A DNA stretch of 63,986 nucleotides, filler included, from Collodictyon triciliatum (Eukaryota): NCBI GenBank assembly GCA_043381765.1. It is 6 parts of 6 records of this genome, joined end to end, with 100 filler letters (N's around TTAATTAATTAA, not from the genome) between each part and the next. Parts side by side here need not be neighbours in the genome. Positions count along the whole stretch, not along the records: positions 31,686 to 39,228 come from JBHJMP010000151.1; 5 more parts are not named here. One strand, given 5' to 3'. Under the pieces are notes generated by a model. It searched no databases. It worked only from the letters and a program-made list of their open reading frames with translations, and was not told the origin of the DNA. The position numbers and the translations under genes were made by a program. How positions within the stretch are numbered: position 1 is the first letter of the stretch; every line of letters begins with the position of its first letter. Below are positions 2,022 through 48,542 of the stretch, one piece after another.

Positions 2022-3235
2022 TTACGGGTCAGGATGGTTGATTTCACCCTGCATGGCTCGGCTGCTGGCCACGCTGAAGGACAGAAGCGACGCGTCCACG
2101 ACCTTCTTGGCTTTTCTGGGGCCCTTCTTTGCGGCATCTGCTGCTGCTGCTGCTGCTGCGCTCTGGGCCGCAGGCTTTGGCTTTGGCTTTGGCTTCTGCT
2201 GTGGAGTCGTCTGCGGCGTCGGCTTTGCACCCTGCAGGTTCAGCGACGTCACCACAGACGCTTCGCGACACTCGGCCCGTTTGCGGCGGATAAACTCGTC
2301 GGCAAAGACTCCGACCTCCGGTGTGCGTCCGAGGTTGTCCATGATTAGTTCCCGCGTCTCGGTCGTGTCTTCACTCAGGAAGTAGTCCAGTAGGCTTGGG
2401 TCCGCTGTGATGATGATGATGGCGATGATGATGGTGATGATGATGGTGATGATGATGGTGATGATGATGGTGATGATGATGGTGATGATGGTGATGATGG
2501 TGATGATGGTGATGATGATGTGATTATAGAACATGCCGTCTTTCATGAGTCGCTCGAGAGAATGGTGCGCCCAGTTGAGAAAATCTCTGGAGATAACCAG
2601 GTCAATACCAAAGCATGTTCTCGTGACTTCCTTGGAATCTGGAGAGTTTTGTAGGGAAATTCAGTGGTGAGCTTGTTATGTATTCATTATTCTTGTTTTT
2701 TTAAGGTCTTAAGTAAGAAAAAAAGAAAAAGAAAAAGAAAAAGAAAAAGAAAAAGAAAAAGAAAAAGAAAAAGAAAAAGAAAAAGAAAAAGAAAAAGAAA
2801 AAGAAAAAGAAAAANAAAAAGAAAAAGAAAAAGAAAAAGAAAAAGAAAAAGAAAAAGAAAAAGAAAAAGAAAAAGAAAAAGAAAAAGAAAAAGAAAAAGA
2901 AAAAGAAAAAGAAAAAGAAAAAGAAAAAGAAAAAGAAAAAGAAAAAGAAAAAGAAAAAGAAAAAGAGATGAGAATTGGATTCGGTGCGATGATATATTAG
3001 ATGCATGGGAAATGGCAAAAAAACATCGATTTGTGGGTTCGTGGTTGTTGAAATAAATTCTATCCAGAGAAGACTTACCAGGATTTTGGTGCTTTTCGGA
3101 TGAGAAAGAGATAGTGTCGTGCTTCTTTTTTGGTGGGAGGGCAGGGAAGTCATCGGCGCTAAGCATATGATATTGAGGTTTGTATGTAAGAATGGAAGGA
3201 CTGAGTATACAAGCATTCCCTAGAGCATAGATGGG

Positions 3236-3267
<32 letters not shown>

Positions 3268-6057
3268 TTGTTTTTGTTGTTGTTGTTATTTCTCTCTCCC
3301 TGCGAACATATACGATAAAGCCATAAACATTTATCATAAGGATTGGTTATATGACATTTGATTACGTGGGGACGACCCCTTTGTTTGACTGCATCACCGT
3401 CTTTGGATAAGTTAAAGGAGCAGCGGGTGTGATTGGGTTTGTGACTGCCTTCGCAGACTTTGCTTGTGGCCGAGACCCAGGGAGGGCGGGGAAATCCTCT
3501 CTACAGGATGCGTGCAGAGCAAAACATATTAAGAAAAATACACAGGCATATTTACAAATGAATCGACCGGTGTGATTCTCCTTCGTGAGATCTACACACA
3601 TGTATATAATCACTGAGATACTCTTCACTGGTGAAATAAGTAGCGATGTTTCAGGTCTTCCCTTTTTCTCTCTTCTTCGTTATAGAAACATCCAAAAAAA
3701 AATATGAGCGATAACAATGACAAGAAATACTATTACGTACTCTTTGATTGGTGCGGACTCTGGTTGTGCACTCTTTGTTGTTTGTGCAGGTTGTATGGGT
3801 TGAGTAGAAACTGGCGAAGCGAGTGTCGGCGAAATGGGTGTTTGCTTGACCACGACCCCTGCTGCTGTTGCTGTTGATGATGGCGGTGGGACATTTGCAT
3901 CAGACCCCCAGAACATGTCCTCCTCATCATTATCCTGGGCTGGAGGGACCGCAGGAACCACAGGCTATATTATTATTATTTCAACTACAGTGGTCAAAAT
4001 ACTGACCATGATAATATCACTGAAAACGTTTTGATGAAATACAAGGAAAAAAATAGTATAGTTAAACATAGTAGACAACAACTCTACGATTATACCTTTG
4101 TAATAATCGACACAGTACTCAGCAGAGAATTCGCATTTGCATTTGGCTGCTGCTTGGCAGAGGCAGGTTTCTCTGCTGGCTTCTGTGTTGACGACTTCTT
4201 GTGCTCTGGAGCCTCCTTTACTGGCTGACCAACAGGATTCGTTGGTCGACTATCTGAAATCGGTGCAGAAGCTGATGCAGAAGCTGGCGCAGAAGCTGAG
4301 ACAGAAACTGGCACTGATACAGGTGCACTCTGTGATGAGGTCTGACCCGCGTTCGTCTTCTTTTCAGCATCCAGAATCTCCATGATCGACAGCGGCTTAA
4401 TCTTGGAGGGAGTCGGGATGTCCCATACAATAAACGTGGATTTGTTTGGAGTTCCGTCAACGACTGCCGCAACGACCTTTGCCTGCTCGTTGGCCAATGA
4501 GGAGCCCGCTTGTAAGGATGAAGCGGAGGGGGCAGTACTTGAAGGTTGTTTACTTTTCTCCAATGCAGCGCGTCGTAGCTCTTCTTCCTGGATTTCCTTT
4601 AGACTGGGAGTGTGCGGCTTCTTTGCAGCAGTTGTCACATTCCACGCAGATTTGGAATCGACAGGTTTCTGTTCCACAACAACGGCGACATTTGATGCTT
4701 GTCGAGTCGAATAGGTCTTCACCTCTTCATCCATGATGCTCTTAAGTGAGTCGACGTTCTTTGGCTCTGCAATCTTCGCCCACGACGCGGCAGGCTTGGT
4801 TGCCTCTGCAGCGTGTCCAGAGTCTGCCTTGGAGGTCGAAGTCAATTTTTGGGACTCGCCTTTGGTCGCCTGTTTTCCTTCTGCTTTTGTTGTAGAGGCC
4901 TTTTTGGAATCAGAAGACCCCGAGGTGCGTGCAGATGTCTCATCTTTCCTTCTCGCGGCAACAGATGGCAGCGGTGGGAATGCATTCGGATCATCTGAGA
5001 CGATAGGTGCAGCAGTCGGTTCTTTCAAGATGGGGGCAGGAAGAACAGACACTTGATTGCCAGTCATTACAGGGTAAGTGTGTGGATTCTTTGTTGGGGC
5101 TGTCTCGGTCGTGGACTGGATTGGTAAAGGTTCTGCTTTCTTTACTGGATTTTCACTTGCCGCTGGAGGTTGGTTAGTCTTGACTATCTGGATTCCCTGA
5201 GGAGGAACATGATTTTCCTGTATGACTGGCTTATCTTGCGGAATACTCTCGCTTGGATGTTCGCTTCTCTGCTCCTGTGTTTGTGATGACTCTTGTGTTT
5301 GTGGTGTCTGTGGCTCTGCACTGCCCCATATCATTTTGGACCAATCCTGAGCCTGTTGTGGCTGCATTTGGGGTTGCGTTTGTGGTTGCGTTTGTGGCTG
5401 CGTTGCTTGTTGAGTGAGCACCTGGGCAAATGAAGGATTTGGATACTGACCAGTAAATTGCTGGGGATAGAGACCAGGAAATCCTTGTGAGGCAGAATGG
5501 GGTTGAGCCGCCATTTGTTGAGGAAGAGAAAGATTCGCACTTTGGTCGAATAGCTGCGGATTCATGGCAGAAGCTTGCATCACGGGGAGGAATGCTTGCA
5601 TAGAGCGCATCAGATATGTCCTCTTCATTTCGAATTGGCGAGATTTTTCGATAAATAAGGCTTCATACTCTGCGATTTGCTGCCCGCCTTCGGGTGTTCT
5701 GGTAAGTTTGAGTTGCTCGATGTTATGGTAAAGCATTTGAAGCGCTGCATATTCGTGCTGCAAGGCAATCATAAGCTCCATATGATTCGACATAACCGGG
5801 TTGATTCCATAGCCTGTGGCCGCCATTTGCTCAGGAAACATTCCTACACGGGCGGCTGCTTGCATTTGCGATACAACTTGTGGGTTCATGGAATGCATCG
5901 GAGGTACGTTTTGTTGTGGGTTGAGTCCTGGATACGCGGTCGAAGGGTTCCCCGCAGCGCTACCAAACATACCAAAAGAGTTTCCTGGGAACACACCTAT
6001 TTATTTTGGTTCAAACTTAATATGAGAAAAAAATTATGCTGAGGTGCAGTGCAAAGT

Positions 6058-6089
<32 letters not shown>

Positions 6090-7637
6090 CGATGCGTAAA
6101 AATTAGGGGGCCATTTTATTAATAAAAANNNNNNNNNNNNNNNNNNNNNNNNNNNNNNNNNNNNNNNNNNNNNNNNNNNNNNNNNNNNNNNNNNNNNNNN
6201 NNNNNNNNNNNNNNNNNNNNNNNNNNNNCCTACTCCTCCCCACAAAAACATAAAAAAAAAAAAAAAATATCCGTTGGGTCATTTATTTTTGTTTTTTTTT
6301 TTTTTTTTTTTTTTGCGATGCGACAAAATCAGAGGGCACATTAATAGAATAAAAAAATTAGCATGAACTTGATAAACTTTCTTTTATAGAAACTAACCTG
6401 AGGGAAATGGAATTCCATCGTTGGCAGGCTTCCGTCCAGAAAAATCTTCTGTAAAAGGAGAGATAGGAGAAGAATCTGGGGTATCTGATGAAGGTGCCTT
6501 GTATGACAGGAATATTGGTTGGGTTGTTTGAAGGATGGATTCCAAGGGGAAGAAGGCCTTATCCTGCGTCGTTTTTATCAGGAGTGTTGGCTGGAAAAGT
6601 CCCATTCCGTACCAGTATTGCATTTGGTTGTCTGAAAAGGGGCCCTGGGTCTTTTGGTTCTGATCAACATAGAACCAACGTCCTTCTCTCAGGTGAGATG
6701 CCGGAGTGTCCGTAAATGAAGAGTCCTGGGTAACAGGAGCAGTTGTATATCCAGAGAACGTGGGTGTCGATGACTGCTGCAATCTTGCGAATGGGTCGAA
6801 AGACTGCTCAGGCATTAAGCCTGGTTGTGGTCCATTTTCATGGACACCTTCAGCCATTTCTGCTGGCAATTTGGGGGAATAGGGCTTCTGGATAGGGGTT
6901 GGGGTTGTCCCTCTGGCAGGAATTGGCCATGGAGCGAGGCCGTCCGCTTCAGTCTCTATCTTTTCTCTGAATTGATGAAGCCTGCTCCCCGCAGGTAGTG
7001 CAGATTCTGTTTGGCTCGACGAGTCGACTTCGGTATTTTCCAGAGAAGGTGTAACAGGTGTTGAAGAAGGCAGTGACGAAGATATTCGACCAGGTTTGTC
7101 AAAGAAAGTGTCAGTTTGATTGCTTGTCTTTGGTTGGTTCGCAGCCATTTGTGCAGCCATTCTCTCCTTGAATTCTTGCTATTAACGTATGATGCGTCAA
7201 ACGAAAAAAAAAAAAAGGAAACAAAAAATAATCATGTTGATAATAAACGAGTAGAAGGAGGAATCTCCAGGGAGGGAGGGAAGGAAAGGAGAGCCTACTC
7301 TCTTTGGGTGCACATGAAAAAAAGTGTGAAAAAAAGGCTGCCCGATTATACATACCCTTCCGATTGCCACAGGGTCTAGATAAGTGGACGATTCATATGC
7401 CTTGGATTCGTCCTGAGACGGTTTTTCGGGCGCTTTTGTCTTGGACGAGACATCAGTACCCTTCATTCTCGACTCCAAGAAATCGTCGAAATCTAACACA
7501 AGACAAATCATCAATACAGACTAGCCCCATCATTTCATATGAAGATGTATAAGCACACACATACACATACACATACATACATACACACAAAAAAAAACTT
7601 TAAAACTTGGTGTGATTATCCTGCAGGCACATGAAAC

Positions 7638-7682
<45 letters not shown>

Positions 7683-31641: not shown

Positions 31642-31686
31642 NNNNNNNNNNNNNNNNNNNNNNNNNNNNNNNNNNNNNNNNNNNNT

Positions 31687-31782
<96 letters not shown>

Positions 31783-31828
31783 AGTGAAAGTATCTATTTG
31801 GTGAGCCTCAAAATCCTTTTTCCTGCAG

Positions 31829-34800
31829 GAATCGTCGACTTGTGCCTTTCAACTGCACCAGAGAAGTTCAAAGTTCTTGTGGTCGACGAGCACACGTCCA
31901 AGATCCTGAATGCAGCGATGAAGCTCAGTGAACTGGTCGACCTCTATATAGCGAGTAAGCGTTCTTTTTTCTTAGTTGCATCTCCTCGAATAACGTTACC
32001 TTTTATTTTACAAAAACTATCGTTGTATTATACCCGGCAAGTCCGTCACCAAACACTAAATCATTTCGATAACTTCTTGTGGTAGCGGTGGACTCGATCG
32101 GCGTGGAACGTCAACCCTTCCCAGACATGGACGCCATTTACTTTATATCTCCTACCTCGGAATCCGTAACACGACTCATATCTGACTTCGAAGGAACTTT
32201 TGCACCGAGATATCACACTGCACACTTGCTCTTCTGCTCGCGTGAGGATCATATTCTACATCACCACCTCCTTGAGATATTCCGTTGTAAACGCACCCCT
32301 TTTATATATACACGCATCTCTTTTCCCCTTTTAAATGAACGCATCAAAGGATAATTGTGGTGTAGATAAAGGTAAATTAACCGATTTGTTGACATATTAT
32401 TCCAAAATTACTCTTTTAAAAAAATTCCATTATAGATGTAGGCGACGCAATTGTTTCAAGGTTAAAGTCCAGCGCTGCCACTATTCGCCGAGTGAAGACA
32501 TTCAAGGAGATTAACATCGATTTTCTGGGTTTCGTTTTATTTTCAACTTTCCCTTGTATACCAGTCAAGTTATTAGGCTTTCATCGTTTGACTAGCCTAA
32601 CAGTTTAAAATGAGAATTTTTCTTTTGCCAAAGTTTATTTCAGAAAAGTTAACGTTTTTCATGCTTTCCTACCTATTTTAGCATTAGAATCTCAAGTCTT
32701 TTCTTTGAATCGGCCGAATGGGTATTTTATAATATCTTGTTGTTTTATCATGATATTGATTCATGAAATCAATTTTCAAGGTATTTACTTTGTAATAAAA
32801 ATTTTAACTTCACAATACGTATAATCTGTTAGGCTGTACAATCTTTTTTCCCCAAACTCTACGTCTAAAGCTGCCGAAGTATCAAGATGTTCTGAGCAAT
32901 TACTAACTTTGCTACGCTCCTTGGATGAGACCTTGTTTCCTCCCATCATTCGACACCAAAATTCTGAATTGTCTAGAAGGTATCTAAATTTATGTGTGCG
33001 CATATGATTCATTTATCTCGGACGATTGCTGGATCTGTACATTATTGACACTAATCTATCAAACACAATGCAATGTCCTCGCTACTAAAATAAAATTGTG
33101 CATTATCATCCCAATAGTATCGCATTGACACTACAAGAACAACTAAGAACTGCGATAGGAAAGCCAAATAGTGCATCTAAGCCACAAAGAGATCCAGCTG
33201 TTGTCCTCATATTGGATCGCTCCTTTGTAATTTTAATTAATTACAACTTCCATGGAAGTTTATGTAAATCTTGATAGTAATGTTAATCATCTTGTTTAAT
33301 TTATTTGATTTGATACTCGCTCTTGACCTTCATATGTAAATAATATATAAAACAGGACCCTCTCTCTCCACTCCTACATGAATTTACATACCAGGCGATG
33401 ATACATGACCTCCTAAATATCGAAAAAGATATCTACCAGTGAGAATTTTGAATTAATATGTTTAAAAAATATCGACAGCACAATACAAACCCCACTGGTA
33501 CTTTTTTTTTTTTTAAAAAAAAAAAAAAAAAGATCATTTTTTTTTTATTTCTTTTGAAGATTCGAATAAAAGAGTATTGAAGACGCTNNNNNNNNNNNNN
33601 NNNNNNNNNNNNNNNNNNNNNNNNNNNNNNNNNNNNNNNNNNNNNNNNNNNNNNNNNNNNNNNNNNNNNNNNNNNNNNNNNNNNNNNAAAAAAAATATTA
33701 AAAAAAATTAAAAAAAAAAAAAAAAAAAAAATATATAATTTTTTTTTTTTTTTTAAAAAAAAAAAAAGAAGCTCATTCTATTCACATGTCCTATGCAGAT
33801 TCGAATCAAAGAGTACTGCAGACGCTGTATTGAAAAAGGAGTTTATCTTGAATGAGAAATTCGGATCTCTTTGGGCTAACTTGCGTTCCATGCATATTAT
33901 GGATGTTATATCAGTAACGCATATTTTTAAACTCATTGACTGAATCGAATACATTACATCGAATGAAACACACACAATCATAAAAATTCAATTTTACAGA
34001 AAATCAAAGAAGACTATGAAAGCTTTAAAGTTGATGTGGAAGGGCCATCTCATGAACAAGGAGGATATCAAGCTGATGCACAGAAAGTATTTTTTAACAT
34101 AATAATTTCACTTTGTTCAAATACCTCAAGTTGCACCTCGTTTTATTTCGATTTTTCTTCTTCCTCTGCTCTCCCTATTTACTAGGGTCGCACAAGGGTA
34201 GATCTCGAGCGTGCCATCCACAGTATGCCAATGAGACGGGAACAAGCGCTGGAGGTAGACTGATTTCTATTACAAACAACGGAAATCAAGATTGGAATAT
34301 CTCGCAAATGTTAAAGGATATTATACATCTTATTTGAGATATGATAAAAGGCTATTAAAAAGCTGTATGTTATAATATGATTCCACTGTTATCGATGATA
34401 TCCTAGTTTGCAGCGCACATCAGTCTGACTGATGAATGTATGACGGCCTTTAAGAGGAGTAACGTCGCAGATTTGGCTGCAGTCGAGCAAGTTTGTGGAT
34501 TATCCTGTGAAATCATATAAACTATACACCTGTCTTTTCTCATTCGCGCGTTACAGGATATTGCAACAGGAGAGGACTCTCTTGGGAATCCTATCCGAAA
34601 CTTGGTCTCATCTGTAATGTCCGTCAGTGAAAAAGCCAGGTATTCATCAAGATTTCTGAAACTCTATGCATTTATATGAGCTCTTCAAAGTTCCTATAGT
34701 AAGGAACCTACGCGTATAGTTCATCAGCAAATTCTAGTCGTGATATTATCAGAGTCTTGATGATGTATGTTATCAGTCAAGGGATTAAGAGTTCTGATAA

Positions 34801-36877
34801 GGAACTTATTTTCCAGGTATGACTCTAATGGTAAACCGAAATTTAGTTGAGTGTCATGCATATATATTCTGATTGGAAAGATAAAACATACTTTGGTAGA
34901 CTTTCAAGTTGAAGCCGGAAGCACAGGCTGCAATTTGTAATCTGGAGCATTTAAATGTTGTGGTCACTAGGGTAAAGAAGCTTACAATTGAGCACACATA
35001 CATATTAACGGAAGTTCTCTTGAACACATTGATGTTTTCAATTATGTTGGAAGTAAATACACTGATATCTTTAACCCCTAAAAGAAAACCAACGAAAAGA
35101 GAGCTGACCGCATGGCTAAGTATGTCTAAGGATTAGACTATCAACCCGTGAACCATGGCAATAAAAGAAAAAAAACATTTTTCCCTTGTTCTATACTTTA
35201 TACCTAAATTGGTATTTGTAATCTAATCAACAGTCAAGGCCGGAAAAAACGAGGAGATGACGTTCCATATGAGCTATCCCGGTATGTTCCTCGCATCAAG
35301 GACATTATGGAGGTAGTATTATCTATCGCTCATGCCCTTCCCCATTGTTATCTTGATGGTTGTTGGCTTTTTTAAGAAAAAAGAAAAGAAAAGCTCTTAA
35401 AATCATGCCCTTTTTCTTACAATATCATTTGAACAAAGGATTTATCTCGAGACCAATTACTCGAAGCAGAATTTCCACATACTTCTTCGGTAGTTATCCC
35501 ATTCATTTTTATAAAAAATTTTTTAAAAAAAAAAGTATGAAAGGAAATATTCAGAGAGGAAAAAAATAATCACATCCTGATGATGGCGAATTATCGAATG
35601 ATCACCAGTTATCCATAATTATCAGAACAGTTTCATATATAAACATAATCACTTAACCAGGCAAAGAGTCCAGCCCCTTCGTTTTCAACGCAAACAAAGG
35701 CAAAATTAAAGTTTGTTGGTATCATGCATACATCTAATAAGTATATGATAATTTTATTGGTGTTTGCTACTTTTTCATACACCATCTCCTAATCATATGC
35801 ATCATTTATTCTAGAAATTGGGCTGCTGGTTCATCTGAGGTTGGTCTCTTAGATTTATTAAGAGTCTATTTCCTTCTGGTCTTACCACTAGTGCTTTTTT
35901 TTCTTTTTTTTAAAGCGAAAAGTATGATGATTTGCAAACACTGAAGGATAGGGAACAAACCATAATTATCTGGATATCGAGATTTTTTTTACCTTTCAAC
36001 TTCTTTAACAATGAGGCACTTGTTAAGTGCGTTCTATGTTTAAGAAAATCCCAACCAGATGAAAGTGCAGGGGTACTGATTGTTGTGCTATTTTGCCTTT
36101 GCAAAAGAGAAGACAAGGTGATGATTTGCACTTGCTGAGGGACGGAAGATAACAAATCAAGATTTTCTGATTTTATGGAGACTTGTTCCAACTTTCGAAA
36201 CCTTTGAAACACTTGTTAAGTATGTTTCATGGTTAAGAAAATCCTGACCAGATGAAAATGCAGGGGTTCTGACTTTTCCTCCTTCTTCTCCCTCTTCGCT
36301 TTCTACCCTCTTTCTCTATTTCCATGTGCGTATTCTATATCATCTATATGGCAGTATACTCGTACTCTCTTCCCATGCCATATTTTTTTTATCTATCTCA
36401 GAAGGACGATTCCAACGTGAAGGGCTGCCGTTTTATCGTATTTATAGCAGGTCTTATATCGACATCACCACCACTTAATGCCAATCAAGCTCAACATTAT
36501 CTTACAAGATATCCTATGCCTTTACTCTTCCATCTGACTACAAGCATTTGTTCCTTTGCGAAAAAAAAAGGTGGGATGACTTATTCTGAGATTCGTTCGG
36601 CTTACGAAACCACAAAGTCATCAAAGAGAGAATTCATTATCGGTAAAACTGATAGTCACCTACATTTTCTACGATTTATTTTCATTTTGCTTTGTTTCCG
36701 ATTACATCACCTCCTCTCTCACCCTATCTCTTTCTCTACCTGCGCAAGAACTATAATTCAAACATGCACTATCCCTCAAAGCCCTCAACCATCCTAGGCT
36801 CCACACACATCCTGACACCGAGCTCGTGGGTGGAATCGGTCGGAAAACTTGACCCTACAAACATACATAAGAAATAG
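31829..36877 (+). CDS. SEC1: Sec1/Munc18 (SM) protein; 5' exon(s) missing
   Basis: [79 protein letters not shown]. Confidence 0.95.
35924..36079 (+). ncRNA. Box C/D snoRNA, copy 1 (predicted U6 Cm62-type guide)
   Basis: Box C ATGATGA at 35924, D' CTGA at 35941, C'-like CAGATGA at 36056, guide GTGCAGGGGTA, box D CTGA at 36076-36079; sense strand in Sec1 intron 35840-36401. Confidence 0.7.
36118..36272 (+). ncRNA. Box C/D snoRNA, copy 2 (paralog)
   Basis: Box C GTGATGA at 36118, D' CTGA at 36135, C'-like CAGATGA at 36249, guide ATGCAGGGGTT, box D CTGA at 36269-36272; AAG/CTT terminal stem; last 63 nt are 54/63 identical to copy 1. Confidence 0.7.
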
Positions 36878-37677
36878 ATTTCTCGAGAATCCCAGCCGCA
36901 GCCGAGAAACCGCCACAACATCATAACGTTAACGACATGATTGAATCCTTTTGTGGGAGAACCATAAACCTGACCAGAAAAAAAAAAAGATGTGCCTGTA
37001 CATTCCTCGCAGTTGCCAACCTCAGTCATTGTATAGAATGATTAAGCTTGTCAGGGGAAAAGGGCGGTGTGGTTAACTAATAGTACTCGCGTATCACATG
37101 ATTATTTTACACGATTTAGTAACGCACATAGAGAGCGGTTGGGCTCAATATATGCCTATTTTGTATGCAAGATATCATCCAGATATGTACGTGAATGAGC
37201 CGCATGCAACTTGTTTCGTTGGTGGCTTCCTCATGTCCCAACAGCGCGATCCACGGTTGCACAGGAACATGACCGCTCGCCAGCAGAAAGACACAAGTAT
37301 CAGGAGGCTACTGACCTCTCAAGTGCGTCTGAAAAATGGCTCATCACACAACAAGAGTATCCCCTTCGTAGTCTTGTCTGCGCAGCGCATGTAAAGTCAA
37401 CTTGAGAAGCCAAACAGAAAGCAGTAAGCAAGCAAAAAATAAAAAAAATAAAAAATAAAAAAAATGGTGGTGGGCTTGCTCTTCAGAGACTGCTCATGGC
37501 TTCGAGCCTGCAAATCATCTGGTTATTGACCCGTTTATCCACAATCTTTTTCCTATTTCACCATTCCTTTCGTTTTGTGCAAGGCGAGAGGCCTTTGGGT
37601 TTTGCTCACTTGAGGTGTCACCAGTCCTTAAACAGCTGTAGAAAGCCGATGAGCAAGAACTCTCGGGAATTAGACAG

Positions 37678-38327
37678 AAGCTGGGATGTCGACGGACAAA
37701 GCGGCCTCTTACTACTGAGTGGTGGGGTTGTCTGCTTTATTCTTCTCTGCGCCTGCATCTTCTACTGCCACACAAACCGAAAGAGAGGTAGTCCCCACAG
37801 CAAACAAAACCTTCTCTAATTATTTTTTTAAGGTCCGCAATAAGCCGATAAAATAAGCAACAAAAAAAAAGAAAAGAAGAAAAAGAAAACAGAAAACAGA
37901 AAACAGAAAAAGAAAAAAGAAAAAAGAAAAAAGAAAAAAGAAAAAAGAAAAAAGAAAAAAGAAAAAAGAAAACAGAAAAAAAGACCAGAAGCTTTTAGAC
38001 GCGTGGTTGTTGTGTATTGGTTTGCTGTGCTGAAACCCGGCTGGGACACATCTCCCACAGGGCACCCACAGAGGCATGGCACAGCCGGACTGACGCAGGT
38101 CGATATGGTTCCGTCCCCGCCACCAGAGTTTTCGCACATGACCAGCCGAGAGTGGTTCGAGCATGTAGAAAAGACGGTGAGTGTGCCTTCACCCTTTGGC
38201 CAAAGCCACGCAACCCCCACAACCTCGACAATGCCCACCGCACACGCCGGTCTCTTTCTTTCCTGTCCCTCTGCATTAACGAGCCTCTGTGTAGAGACCA
38301 GGCCCGTCGCCTCCGGCAACATATTAA
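37678..38327 (+). CDS. Possible small single-pass membrane protein; start unresolved
   Basis: Exon GLLLLSGGVVCFILLCACIFYCHTNRKR (TM plus basic stop-transfer) followed by Pro-rich exons with GT-AG borders. Confidence 0.35.
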
Positions 38328-39109
38328 ACGTCCGCGCACGGATACTTTCCGCACAACAGCACACGCTGCGAAAGAGTGTCTCTGGCAAGCATGCAGGTCT
38401 GAGTTTGCAAGGGTTGTTTGTGCTTGTCTATGTCTCAGAATGGGGATTGGTGTTGTTCATCTTCGTTAGTTTTCTTTTTGTCGTGTGTAAGCTGGGGCTC
38501 AGCTATGTTGCGTTTTTCAGGCACAGGGACGTGAGTCCCACACCCGTCAGCTATCGTCTTCATCGCCCATAGCTTATATAATAAAATAGCTGCAGTCCTC
38601 AGGTTAAGAAGACTAATTGAACGTGGCTACCGATAGAAAACACCTCATCAATCAGGCCGAGGACTATATTATTAAGGAAGACCCCCTTTACAATGTGGGT
38701 ACGCTTGGTGTTTGCGGAATATTTCTAATGAGGAAGGGTTCATATAAATGCCAAAGATGTCACTAAACTATTTATGGATTGTGAGCACGCCCGCAAATCC
38801 CATGTCCATATGTGGATTTCTGCAGAGGCTTGCAAGCGCCCAGAACCCACCAAATCAGCGCCACGTGCGAATGAGGGCGCTAACAAAGTTGATGGAACCA
38901 CACCGCCATCTTGACGATATTGTTGGAAGAGAGACCGAGGTACTTCTTGGACAATACACAATTGACACATCGCCCTCTGTATGATATATTTCCAATCGAC
39001 ACAAAGCTCATTCTTTGTGTCTTCCAATCCACAAGCGTGTTGCACAGACCCAGCCCCAGGAAAGAAGGAAAGAAGGAAAGAAGGAAAGAAGGAAAGAAGG
39101 AAAGAAGGA

Positions 39110-39228
<119 letters not shown>

Positions 39229-46379: not shown

Positions 46380-48542
46380 ATGAGTCTCGGATCTTTACTC
46401 ACAACAACATCGGCCATCGGAGGGGTCGCAGCAATCGCGCTTGGGGCGCTATACTATTACCAGGTTTCCTTCTCTCTTTCGTCTCAAGCGCCTTCGTTGC
46501 GACCCGTCAAGCAAACGTAGGGATAATATGCAACTCTTTGATATACGATCTCATGTGGAAGTGTAACTCACTTCGTAAACGTGCAGGACGGATTGCTCTA
46601 CTTCCCAAATATGCCTCCAGGTAATAAACCGGATTTCCAAGAAAACATCGAAAAAACTTTCACCTTGCAGCATTTTCCCTGCAATAGAAATATATGAAAC
46701 AATGATACATACAATCATCGAGCTCGTTTTCTGTGACAAGGAGCTAAAAAAATTTTTTTCTCTCCTTTGGCTGTGTAATCCGATGACAATTATTTACACA
46801 ATTACGTAACAGAAGTTTAATATCATCTCTATTCGTTTAAAGTTAGATAGAAAATGGCATACGAACCTATTCCATCATTTATTTCCTTTGTTTAGACGCC
46901 CGGACGAACTTCCTCCAACCAGAGAGATTTGGAATCCGTCATCATGAAAATGTTTATGTTACAGCCAAGTAATCTTTAAAAATTTTAGCTTCACATTCCA
47001 CGAAGGAAAACCTAACTCCATGATGTTACCTCTATATTTGTTTAACAATTCATGAGTTTAACGATTTAATCAATCACTTATGATTCTCATCATTTTTCAA
47101 TATAAAACACTTAAAATTACAGAGATGGTGTGAAAATACACTGTTGGATGCTTTATCCTGATACACCAGACCGGTGCCGAAAGCTACCAACTGTCGTTTA
47201 CTTTCATGGGAATGCTGGAAGTATACGAATTTAACATATTTTACTCATGATAATATTTGAGAAAGGATTTTTTTATTGAATACATTAGAAAGAGATTAGC
47301 TAAATATATATGATATCAATAATTCTCGATTATGTTATCTTTGCCAATCAGTGTCATCACTCCACTATTGATAGATATGAGCTATTTCCTACCAAGTGTA
47401 AGCAGTATTGTCCGAGGCTTAAATGTAAAGGCCTTTCTAGTCTCATATAGAGGGTGAGCAGATCAAATAAATATAATACAGCTTATCAAGGGACCGAAAA
47501 TCATCAGTCTCATTAAAAACTTTCAGTTACTCACCTGATAACCTTACCACTTAAATAAATAAAAGGGGGAAGTGAAATCGGTGAAATATGAAATACTGGA
47601 AAATTCGCCTTTTATGTTCTTAAGATAATTTTTAATAGCACAAATAAATCGTTAAACATCATACATCCAGTAAATTAATTCAAGATAAAAACACATATAA
47701 TATACCAGCTACGGACTCAGTGAAGGAAGCCCCAGCGAGACAGGGCTTAAGTTAGACGGGGATGTGAGAAAATTAAATTAGCTTATAGCATAATAAAGTC
47801 TAGCCAAAAATTTAGCCGATATTAGATTTAAATCATTGTTTACTTTACACATTAAACCATTTAAGTAAATTTTCTAGTCTTTTTCTTATTCATTTTCTTC
47901 CTTCCCTTATCCATACATCAGAGTATGTTCATTGGTTACTGTGATTTTCCTCTCCTATCAGCCAACCCAGTTTTATATGTGCGCCACTACAGGCTGTTAT
48001 GGATCACCTCATCAGCCGCTCTGATGTTGATCATCAGAAAATCTGTGTTTATGGACTCTCCTTGGGCGGCGCTGTGGCAATCTACCTGGCTTCAACACGT
48101 CCACAACATGTAATGTGCAAGCAATTCACTGAAACATTACGGATTCAGCCTCTTCTGATAAATTATTGATTGATATGTTCCCTTCATGTTCAAATTAAAA
48201 GTTTCTACTTTCCCGTTTTATTTATCCGATCGAAATCCCCTCTCGTGAAAGCATTTGATTCGCTATTTAAATTCTTTTTTTCCCCCCTTCATCCAATTAA
48301 TGGAAAAACCCCCTCTGTGCAGATTCGGTGTGCTGTTGTGGAAAACACATTTACATCTATTCCTGACATGATTGATGTTGTGATGCCCTTCCTCGCAATA
48401 GCCAAACCACTATGTACTAATCGATGGGAGTCTATCGAGTTGATTAAAAAGGTCAAAGTTCCCATGCTATTTATCTCTGGACAAAGAGACGAGCTCGTAC
48501 CAAAGGTTCGACGTCTTGTGATGACCATTTCTATCTTTTCTC

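Follow-up and report, generated by a model that had tools for sequence, protein, structure and literature searches.

The intron of a Sec1/Munc18-family gene in the eukaryote Collodictyon triciliatum holds two tandem copies of a unit that resembles a box C/D small nucleolar RNA (snoRNA), each ending in a putative guide directed at the small RNA U6. The gene lies in a stretch of DNA of 63,986 nucleotides (nt), called the window below, which joins parts of six records of assembly GCA_043381765.1; the locus itself falls in the part taken from JBHJMP010000151.1 (positions 31,686 to 39,228). An initial annotation of this DNA had proposed that the two units are unusually long snoRNAs that guide methylation of U6. 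Here, we describe the locus, the RNA that is found from it, and the forms that its product could take.

Two tandem units in a Sec1 intron

The host gene is identified through its exons. Specifically, the translation of the exon at 33344-33442 matches Pfam PF00995 (E=9e-10), and two further exons match more weakly. The exon translations of 35208-35375 and of a segment within 36273-36797 align, in order, to residues 463-492 and 545-573 of squid Sec1 (PDB matches). The intronic location in a Sec1-family gene, proposed initially, is thereby borne out. The intron edges read GAG/GTTGGT at the 5' end and TCTCAG/AAGGAC at the 3' end; the exon before the intron ends ..AAGSSE, and the reading frame is continuous into the next exon. 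That this is the longest intron of the gene, as first described, cannot be confirmed because an assembly gap of 100 N (33588-33687) interrupts another intron of the same gene. Read as protein-coding sequence, the snoRNA region yields no Pfam family above cut-off on either strand.

Both units lie inside this one intron, in tandem on the + strand. Unit 1 occupies 35924-36079 and unit 2 occupies 36118-36272, at 155-156 nt each. In each, the order is C box, 10 nt, CTGA, about 111 nt, CAGATGA, 3 nt, TGCAGGGGT(A/T), CTGA. The parts are as follows.

35840-36401, +: host intron of the Sec1/Munc18-family gene; GT..AG, phase 0, flanking exons in frame
35917-35922, +: outer terminal stem, 5' strand GAAAAG; pairs with 36273-36278 (perfect 6 base pairs (bp), present in the dimer minimum-free-energy fold)
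35924-35930, +: unit 1 C box ATGATGA (direct read)
35931-35944, +: unit 1 spacer TTTGCAAACA (10 nt) and D' box CTGA (35941-35944) (direct read; only TTTGCA common to unit 2)
35945-36055, +: unit 1 insert (direct read)
35945-35998, +: unit 1 insert segment A; a weak hairpin alone, paired lengthwise with 36139-36192 of unit 2 in the dimer fold
36001-36046, +: unit 1 internal hairpin, core GCACTT-GTT-AAGTGC (stretch folded 35997-36050, -14.6 kcal/mol)
36056-36062, +: unit 1 C' box CAGATGA, one departure from TGATGA (7/7 kept between units)
36065-36075, +: unit 1 guide G-TGCAGGGGT-A, upstream of box D (10 bp with the printed human/termite U6 strand)
36066-36075, +: unit 1 10-nt guide TGCAGGGGTA (direct read)
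36076-36079, +: unit 1 D box CTGA (direct read)
36080-36117, +: 38-nt spacer with hairpin TTTTGC-CTTT-GCAAAA (36091-36106), closed by TTGTT/GACAA (36080-84 with 36112-16)
36118-36124, +: unit 2 C box GTGATGA (direct read)
36125-36138, +: unit 2 spacer TTTGCACTTG (10 nt) and D' box CTGA (36135-36138) (direct read)
36193-36240, +: unit 2 internal hairpin, core ACTT-GTT-AAGT (stretch folded 36189-36243, -12.4 kcal/mol)
36249-36255, +: unit 2 C' box CAGATGA (direct read)
36259-36268, +: unit 2 guide TGCAGGGGTT (direct read; duplex -17.6 kcal/mol)
36269-36272, +: unit 2 D box CTGA (direct read)
36273-36278, +: outer terminal stem, 3' strand CTTTTC (direct read and dimer fold)

Both units carry the box motifs of the C/D class: a C box of the form RUGAUGA at the 5' end, a D box CUGA at the 3' end, and internal D' and C' boxes that the insert hairpins bring close to each other. 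The three nucleotides between the C' box and the guide are AAG in unit 1 and AAA in unit 2. All motifs stand in the order and at the positions first given for them; the spacing needs a small correction, in that 3 nt separate the C' box from the 9-mer. The repeat period is 194 nt. The small hairpins noticed at the outset (GCACTT-GTT-AAGTGC and its unit 2 counterpart) are real, and they form parts of longer hairpins that beat shuffled sequences: 35997-36050 folds at z=-3.83, with 0/200 shuffles as good, and 36189-36243 at z=-2.64, with 1/200 as good. As for "unusually long", the units are long, yet they stay within the range of collected C/D snoRNAs, 95% of which measure <=164 nt according to PMC12309372. 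A run of T ends transcription by RNA polymerase III, and unit 1 contains a T8 run, which argues against an independent RNA polymerase III gene.

The units are 70% identical by direct count (113/161 aligned columns; blastn gives 71% over 160), and the 82% "mean column identity" that can also be computed for them is a different measure from the direct column count. Identity is spread unevenly. Specifically, the C box is kept at 6/7 positions, D' at 4/4, C' at 7/7, the 10-nt guide at 9/10, and D at 4/4. Boxes plus guide are kept at 30/32 positions versus 83/129 in the rest of the unit (Fisher one-sided p=0.00046), in line with the conserved boxes and diverged spacers described initially. Over its last 40 nt the unit retains 36/40 positions, whereas identity in the flanks drops to about 40%. 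Of the 10-nt element before D', TTTGCA alone (UUUGCA in the RNA) is shared, and because the four positions next to D' differ between the units, this element is probably not a working methylation guide. We also considered covariation in the internal hairpins. Relative to unit 1, unit 2 shows 2 compensatory, 2 one-sided, and 4 broken pairs of 18; 118 of 500 shuffles reach 2/18 compensatory pairs, and the signal is not significant.

The arrangement is confined to this locus within the window. RTGATGA followed at 8-14 nt by CTGA occurs in two places only in the 63,986 nt, both at these units, with 0 on the minus strand. RTGATGA by itself occurs 46 times on the + strand and 21 times on the - strand, an excess mostly from microsatellites; trinucleotide microsatellites at 2407-2512 (+), 7639-7681 (+), and 53360-53456 (-) yield most of the matches in the window. 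High-copy dispersal as a repeat, with no preferential conservation of the boxes, had been named early on as one of the findings that would speak against a snoRNA; a blastn search of the 64 kb recovers the two copies and no more. A crude scan found no other C/D candidates in the window.

RNA from the locus and a candidate U6 guide

Public sequencing runs hold RNA from these units. A search with 35880-36300 listed 24 rows, and in 20 of them all or some of the stretch is present; 17 of these 20 are recorded as RNA and come from 13 studies, for the most part metatranscriptomes of fresh water. Two organisms of one listed study share 0.68 and 0.26 of the words. Four RNA runs, each from a different study and chosen by words from 35880-36300, were aligned to 35500-36700; for the other 20 listed runs, the word shares count as no evidence. 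Assembled contigs with 0 differences are present in 4/4 of these runs.

35946-36266: contig of run X1, 321 nt
35969-36122: contig of run X4, 154 nt
36109-36263: contig of run X4, 155 nt
35930-36119: contig of run X8, 190 nt
36037-36244: contig of run X10, 208 nt

Each exact match comprises the whole contig. The joint span, 35930-36266, runs from the last base of the unit 1 C box to a point 6 nt short of where the unit 2 D box ends, a weak hint that the contig limits reflect the limits of the RNA. Exact contigs in all four runs indicate that RNA is made from this span, and they constitute good evidence that such RNA is present in nature; the contigs carry no information on strand, ends, size, or amounts, and RNA libraries can contain DNA. 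On the flanking intron and exons, cover is limited to 28 nt of one 31-nt record, which match 35507-35534 with 1 difference; no contig shows a splice junction, and the absence of contigs elsewhere counts as no evidence.

The putative guide stands directly upstream of box D and reads 5'-(G/A)UGCAGGGGU(A/U)-3'. Its proposed partner lies in the U6 internal stem-loop, on the 5' strand, where human and termite U6 as printed read 5'-GGCCCCUGCGC-3'. The human U6 printed in PMC5467268, ..AUGGCCCCUGCGCAAGG.., contains CCCCUGC; the termite U6 printed in PMC10256727 has the same stretch, CCCCUGC included; and the yeast U6 printed in PMC3177201, ..UUCCCCUGCAUAAGG.., contains CCCCUGC as well. Against human or termite U6, the unit 1 guide forms 10 bp (-21.9 kcal/mol) and the unit 2 guide forms 9-10 bp (-17.6 kcal/mol), and 9 bp form against yeast U6. 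Among 2000 shuffled guides, 0 pair with U6 as well. The fifth guide nucleotide from box D sits opposite the third C of CCCC, which is human C62, the nucleotide to which SNORD94 is assigned in the text of PMC6894857. In Dictyostelium, as set out in part of PMC8817022, guide pairing was called at >=7 bp with <=1 mismatch and with the site at the fifth paired nucleotide. The antisense element described here has at least 7 bp and places its site at the fifth nucleotide, on U6 of other species. The pairing with U6 and the aim at the C62 equivalent, both claimed in the initial annotation, hold on the printed human, termite, and yeast sequences. An additional pairing suggested there, AUUUGC:GCAAAU, is possible on human U6; termite U6 has GCAAAA at that place. 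Judged by base pairing, U6 is a plausible target.

Our preferred reading is that the locus is a tandem duplication of a long (155-156 nt) intronic box C/D snoRNA with a conserved U6-directed guide, to which we give a probability of about 0.55. The box C/D nature of the locus and its expression are well supported. The route to function would be the familiar one. The Sec1 pre-mRNA would be spliced, and the core proteins of the snoRNA ribonucleoprotein, which are Snu13, Nop56, Nop58, and fibrillarin, would occupy the box motifs and protect the RNA from exonucleases. The guide would then anneal to U6, on the 5' side of its internal stem-loop, and fibrillarin would 2'-O-methylate the nucleotide opposite the fifth guide position, i.e., the third C, the equivalent of human C62. 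Regarding the mature form, two separate snoRNAs of ~155 nt and one joined RNA of ~345 nt are about equally likely. The locus would in this way belong to a known RNA class, and there is a reasonable chance that it represents a dimeric variant.

Several observations weigh against a tandem pair of U6 guides. Structurally, the single units fold no better than shuffles (z=-0.36 for unit 1, -0.32 for unit 2), and unit 1's own terminal stem is weak, at 4/6 with an internal mismatch. The contigs bridge the spacer, and no discrete ~155-nt species emerges from them. Rfam returns 0 matches at gathering score on the whole window, and only weak, chance-level ones at E<=10. The evidence from conservation comes from two paralogues only, because no orthologue was found: a scan of metagenome contigs with a degenerate pattern built from both units gave 3 matches, all of them chance and all in one bacterial response-regulator-like gene, and the same pattern gave 0 in viral contigs and 0 in prokaryote genomes. 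Finally, the target is read from the U6 of human, termite, and yeast, the match to U6 was found after the fact, and targets in ribosomal RNA (rRNA) are conceivable.

Separate units, one joined RNA, or another target

The strongest competitor concerns the product. It holds that the locus makes one ~345-nt double box C/D RNA with two copies of the U6 guide and with the units folded back on each other, an arrangement in which C1 and D2 form the terminal motif and D1 and C2 form an internal motif closed by the spacer hairpin. We regard this as possible, leaning toward unlikely. The initial annotation had two copies that need to be separated into ~155-nt species; the two copies stand, and their separation is doubtful given contigs that run through the spacer. 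Specifically, a contig covers the whole 38-nt spacer and at least 40 nt past the unit 1 box D in 4/4 runs, and a contig bridges the spacer with at least 43 nt on each side in 2/4 runs (X1, X10). Such bridging contigs imply that still-joined molecules exist and are not rare in these low-depth assemblies. These contigs could nonetheless derive from precursors, they give neither ends nor amounts, and the assembly of run X4 breaks at 36109-36122, near the 5' end of unit 2.

The stems point the same way as the contigs. The outer stem GAAAAG/CTTTTC, which joins the 5' flank of unit 1 to the 3' flank of unit 2, is a perfect 6 bp, and the inner stem TTGTT/GACAA joins the 3' flank of unit 1 to the 5' flank of unit 2 with 5 bp. 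The terminal stems that each unit could form with its own flanks reach 4/6 in unit 1, with the internal mismatch noted above, and 5/6 in unit 2, versus 6/6 for the stem across units. The folded stretch 35912-36284 is predicted at -100.3 kcal/mol versus -81.9 +/- 4.8 for its shuffles (z=-3.87, 0/100 as good). In this dimer fold, unit 1 pairs with unit 2 over most of its length, and the boxes face one another as C1/D2, D'1/C'2, C'1/D'2, and D1/C2. The gain over separately folded units is -34.9 kcal/mol, versus -14.4 +/- 3.6 for independently shuffled units (0/150), and the gains of in-silico homodimers are smaller (unit 1 with unit 1, -20.5 kcal/mol; unit 2 with unit 2, -15.4 kcal/mol). In the inserts, the duplex of 35945-35998 with 36139-36192 is worth -27.9 kcal/mol versus -5.7 and -9.2 for the two hairpins.

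What these energies say about joining is limited. Fold energies leave bound proteins out of account, and in the dimer fold the two guides are base-paired to one another, an arrangement that would conceal them. In the inserts, the heteroduplex gains only 4 kcal/mol over the homoduplexes, and one species alone is available for a covariation test of the double RNA. Moreover, the swapped unit order folds as well (gain -37.8 kcal/mol), so the signal says that the units are complementary, not that they are joined. By the folding model, complementarity between the two diverged units exceeds that of either unit with itself, which is no proof of a rod in the cell.

A separate observation concerns the guides. 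Just past its C box, each unit carries an element (UUUGCA..) that could pair with the guide of the other unit (..UGCAGG), at 35931-35936 with 36259-36264 and at 36063-36071 with 36125-36133. The guide of unit 1 and the 5' element of unit 2 can form 9 bp, a pairing that could mask the guides or hold the units together.

The most specific version of the joined product is a single covalent double C/D RNA of ~345 nt, its halves paired into a rod with four box pairs along it and two copies of the guide. We consider this version unlikely, a little more so than a joined product in general. If true, a rod-like double RNA would be a new architecture for C/D ribonucleoproteins, found in a freshwater eukaryote lineage that is poorly sampled, and would at the same time be a non-vertebrate guide for the U6 C62 equivalent; a joined, self-complementary form, if it is the mature one, would be an unusual way of building a C/D particle.

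A further alternative accepts genuine box C/D snoRNAs and questions the target: the units would act on rRNA or another RNA or would be orphans, and the match to U6 would be a coincidence of a G-rich 9-mer. By our own estimate, a 9-bp match with wobbles would be expected by chance in several kb of rRNA. Orphans are also common among C/D snoRNAs, with 10/27 in Aspergillus fumigatus as given in part of PMC2377427 and nine in Dictyostelium in the corresponding passages of PMC8817022. The match to U6, however, falls in an RNA of ~100 nt, on a strand conserved from yeast to human, and it points exactly at a nucleotide that is snoRNA-methylated in human. Equally at odds with coincidence, 0/2000 shuffled guides pair as well, and the 9-mer is kept in both diverged copies. 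We judge this alternative improbable.

That the locus is no snoRNA at all and instead a structured stable intron fragment, a hairpin precursor of a small RNA, or a local repeat with chance boxes is very improbable: the rod-like fold of the two-unit stretch is strong, 35997-36050 weakly resembles the mir-302 precursor model, and no Rfam snoRNA family matches, but all four box motifs occur in the right order and spacing in both copies and are kept far better than the rest (p=0.00046), canonical C and D boxes sit at the edges of the contig-covered span, and the window has no further copy of the unit.

Three other assignments were examined and set aside. The likeness of 35997-36050 to mir-302 (UAAGUGC..AUGUUU arm) scores 22.5 bits versus a gathering score of 55 (E=0.025 on 177 nt, 0.11 on 801 nt); lying far below the gathering score, it is probably chance. 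A short SNORD18-like snoRNA at 36113-36174 (E=1.1-5.1) would use a D box CTGA at 36167-70 that is CTGG in unit 1, and contigs extend far past it. A third candidate, of ~90 nt and in the other phase, runs from C'1 (36056) through D1, the spacer hairpin, and C2 to D'2 (36138), with flanks TCCC/GGGA, and folds at -27.0 kcal/mol (z=-1.71). As the sole product it is rejected: its C box is non-canonical, and the contigs cover much more.

The remainder of the window offers context. It is rich in introns and microsatellites, has ~38% G+C, and contains 22 N runs (1975 N in all), many adjoining simple repeats, a composition that indicates a draft eukaryote assembly. A BEM46/ABHD13-like alpha/beta hydrolase exon lies at 48296-48505 (+), and its best matches are a protein from a Diphylleia rotans transcriptome (77%), Balamuthia mandrillaris (62%), and Dermamoeba algensis (59%), a weak pointer to a protist lineage and the single one obtained. 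At 6393-7178 (-) lies an open reading frame with a GYF domain (Pfam PF02213, E=8e-14), and adjoining it, at 4090-6000 (-), is an open frame of 636 aa that is rich in Q, P, and T and matches no Pfam family; the two may be exons of one GIGYF-like gene. An ankyrin-repeat open frame of 362 aa spans 59803-60891 (+; Pfam Ank, E=2e-45), and its nearest database proteins are 23-39% identical and come from animals and bacteria alike. For an RRM open reading frame in the window, a database search for relatives found none.

Comparison with known systems

The closest functional parallel to our preferred reading, a duplicated U6 guide, is SNORD94 (U94) of vertebrates. SNORD94 is also a box C/D guide, and the site predicted here in silico is the same nucleotide of the U6 internal stem-loop. 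Like these units, SNORD94 is intronic. The host gene differs, and here two tandem copies share one intron in a non-vertebrate. Homology to SNORD94 fails to appear: for its family (RF00613), Rfam gives no match at gathering score in the window, nor at E<=10, whether 801 nt or the single units are searched. The two may or may not share a common origin.

The pairing of two snoRNA units within one intron recalls the sno-lncRNAs, intron-derived RNAs with a snoRNA at each end, for which two snoRNA genes per intron are the prerequisite in the account of PMC4234469. The likeness lies in the two units of one intron and in contigs that run from unit to unit through the spacer. The differences are that sno-lncRNAs have a long internal stretch, versus 38 nt here, and that both ends here are copies of one guide. 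Bi- and tri-cistronic units of Dictyostelium likewise place several C/D snoRNAs on one precursor; passages of PMC8817022 describe the snoRNA genes there as intergenic, all but one, whereas the locus here is intronic and its units are paralogous with the same guide. By analogy with such polycistronic units, the spacer hairpin could be a cleavage site. Clusters of snoRNA genes also exist in plants, yeast, and trypanosomes. Yeast Rnt1 sites carry an AGNN loop, and the spacer loop here, CUUU, is unlike it.

U6 is the catalytic RNA of the spliceosome. Within its human form, C62 pairs with G72 in the internal stem-loop, and m2G72 is installed efficiently only if C62/C63 are methylated, as reported in parts of PMC13109388. 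In a non-exhaustive search of the open-access literature, supplements not covered, we found no U6 C62 guide outside vertebrates. Other lineages supply partial parallels. Eight ribose methylations are mapped on Arabidopsis U6, of which C57 and A65 are without an assigned guide in the text of PMC8053127; from the numbering, we infer that Arabidopsis C57 is the equivalent of human C62. In Tetrahymena, the U6 guide sites lie in the 5' stem-loop (PMC3273799).

The mgU6-47 family brings the comparison beyond vertebrates. Its members, Neurospora crassa CD11 and Schizosaccharomyces pombe mgU6-47, are likewise box C/D guides for U6; they differ from the units described here in that they address another U6 nucleotide (A47 in human, A41 in S. 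pombe) and that each is a single-copy RNA of ordinary length, as described in portions of PMC2780460. Thus, snoRNA-guided methylation of U6 is not confined to animals. A C62 guide in a distant freshwater eukaryote, if true, would point to an early origin for the methylation of the U6 stem-loop by snoRNA guides, and the sequence of these units, if they are U6-C62 guides, would provide a query with which to search other lineages.

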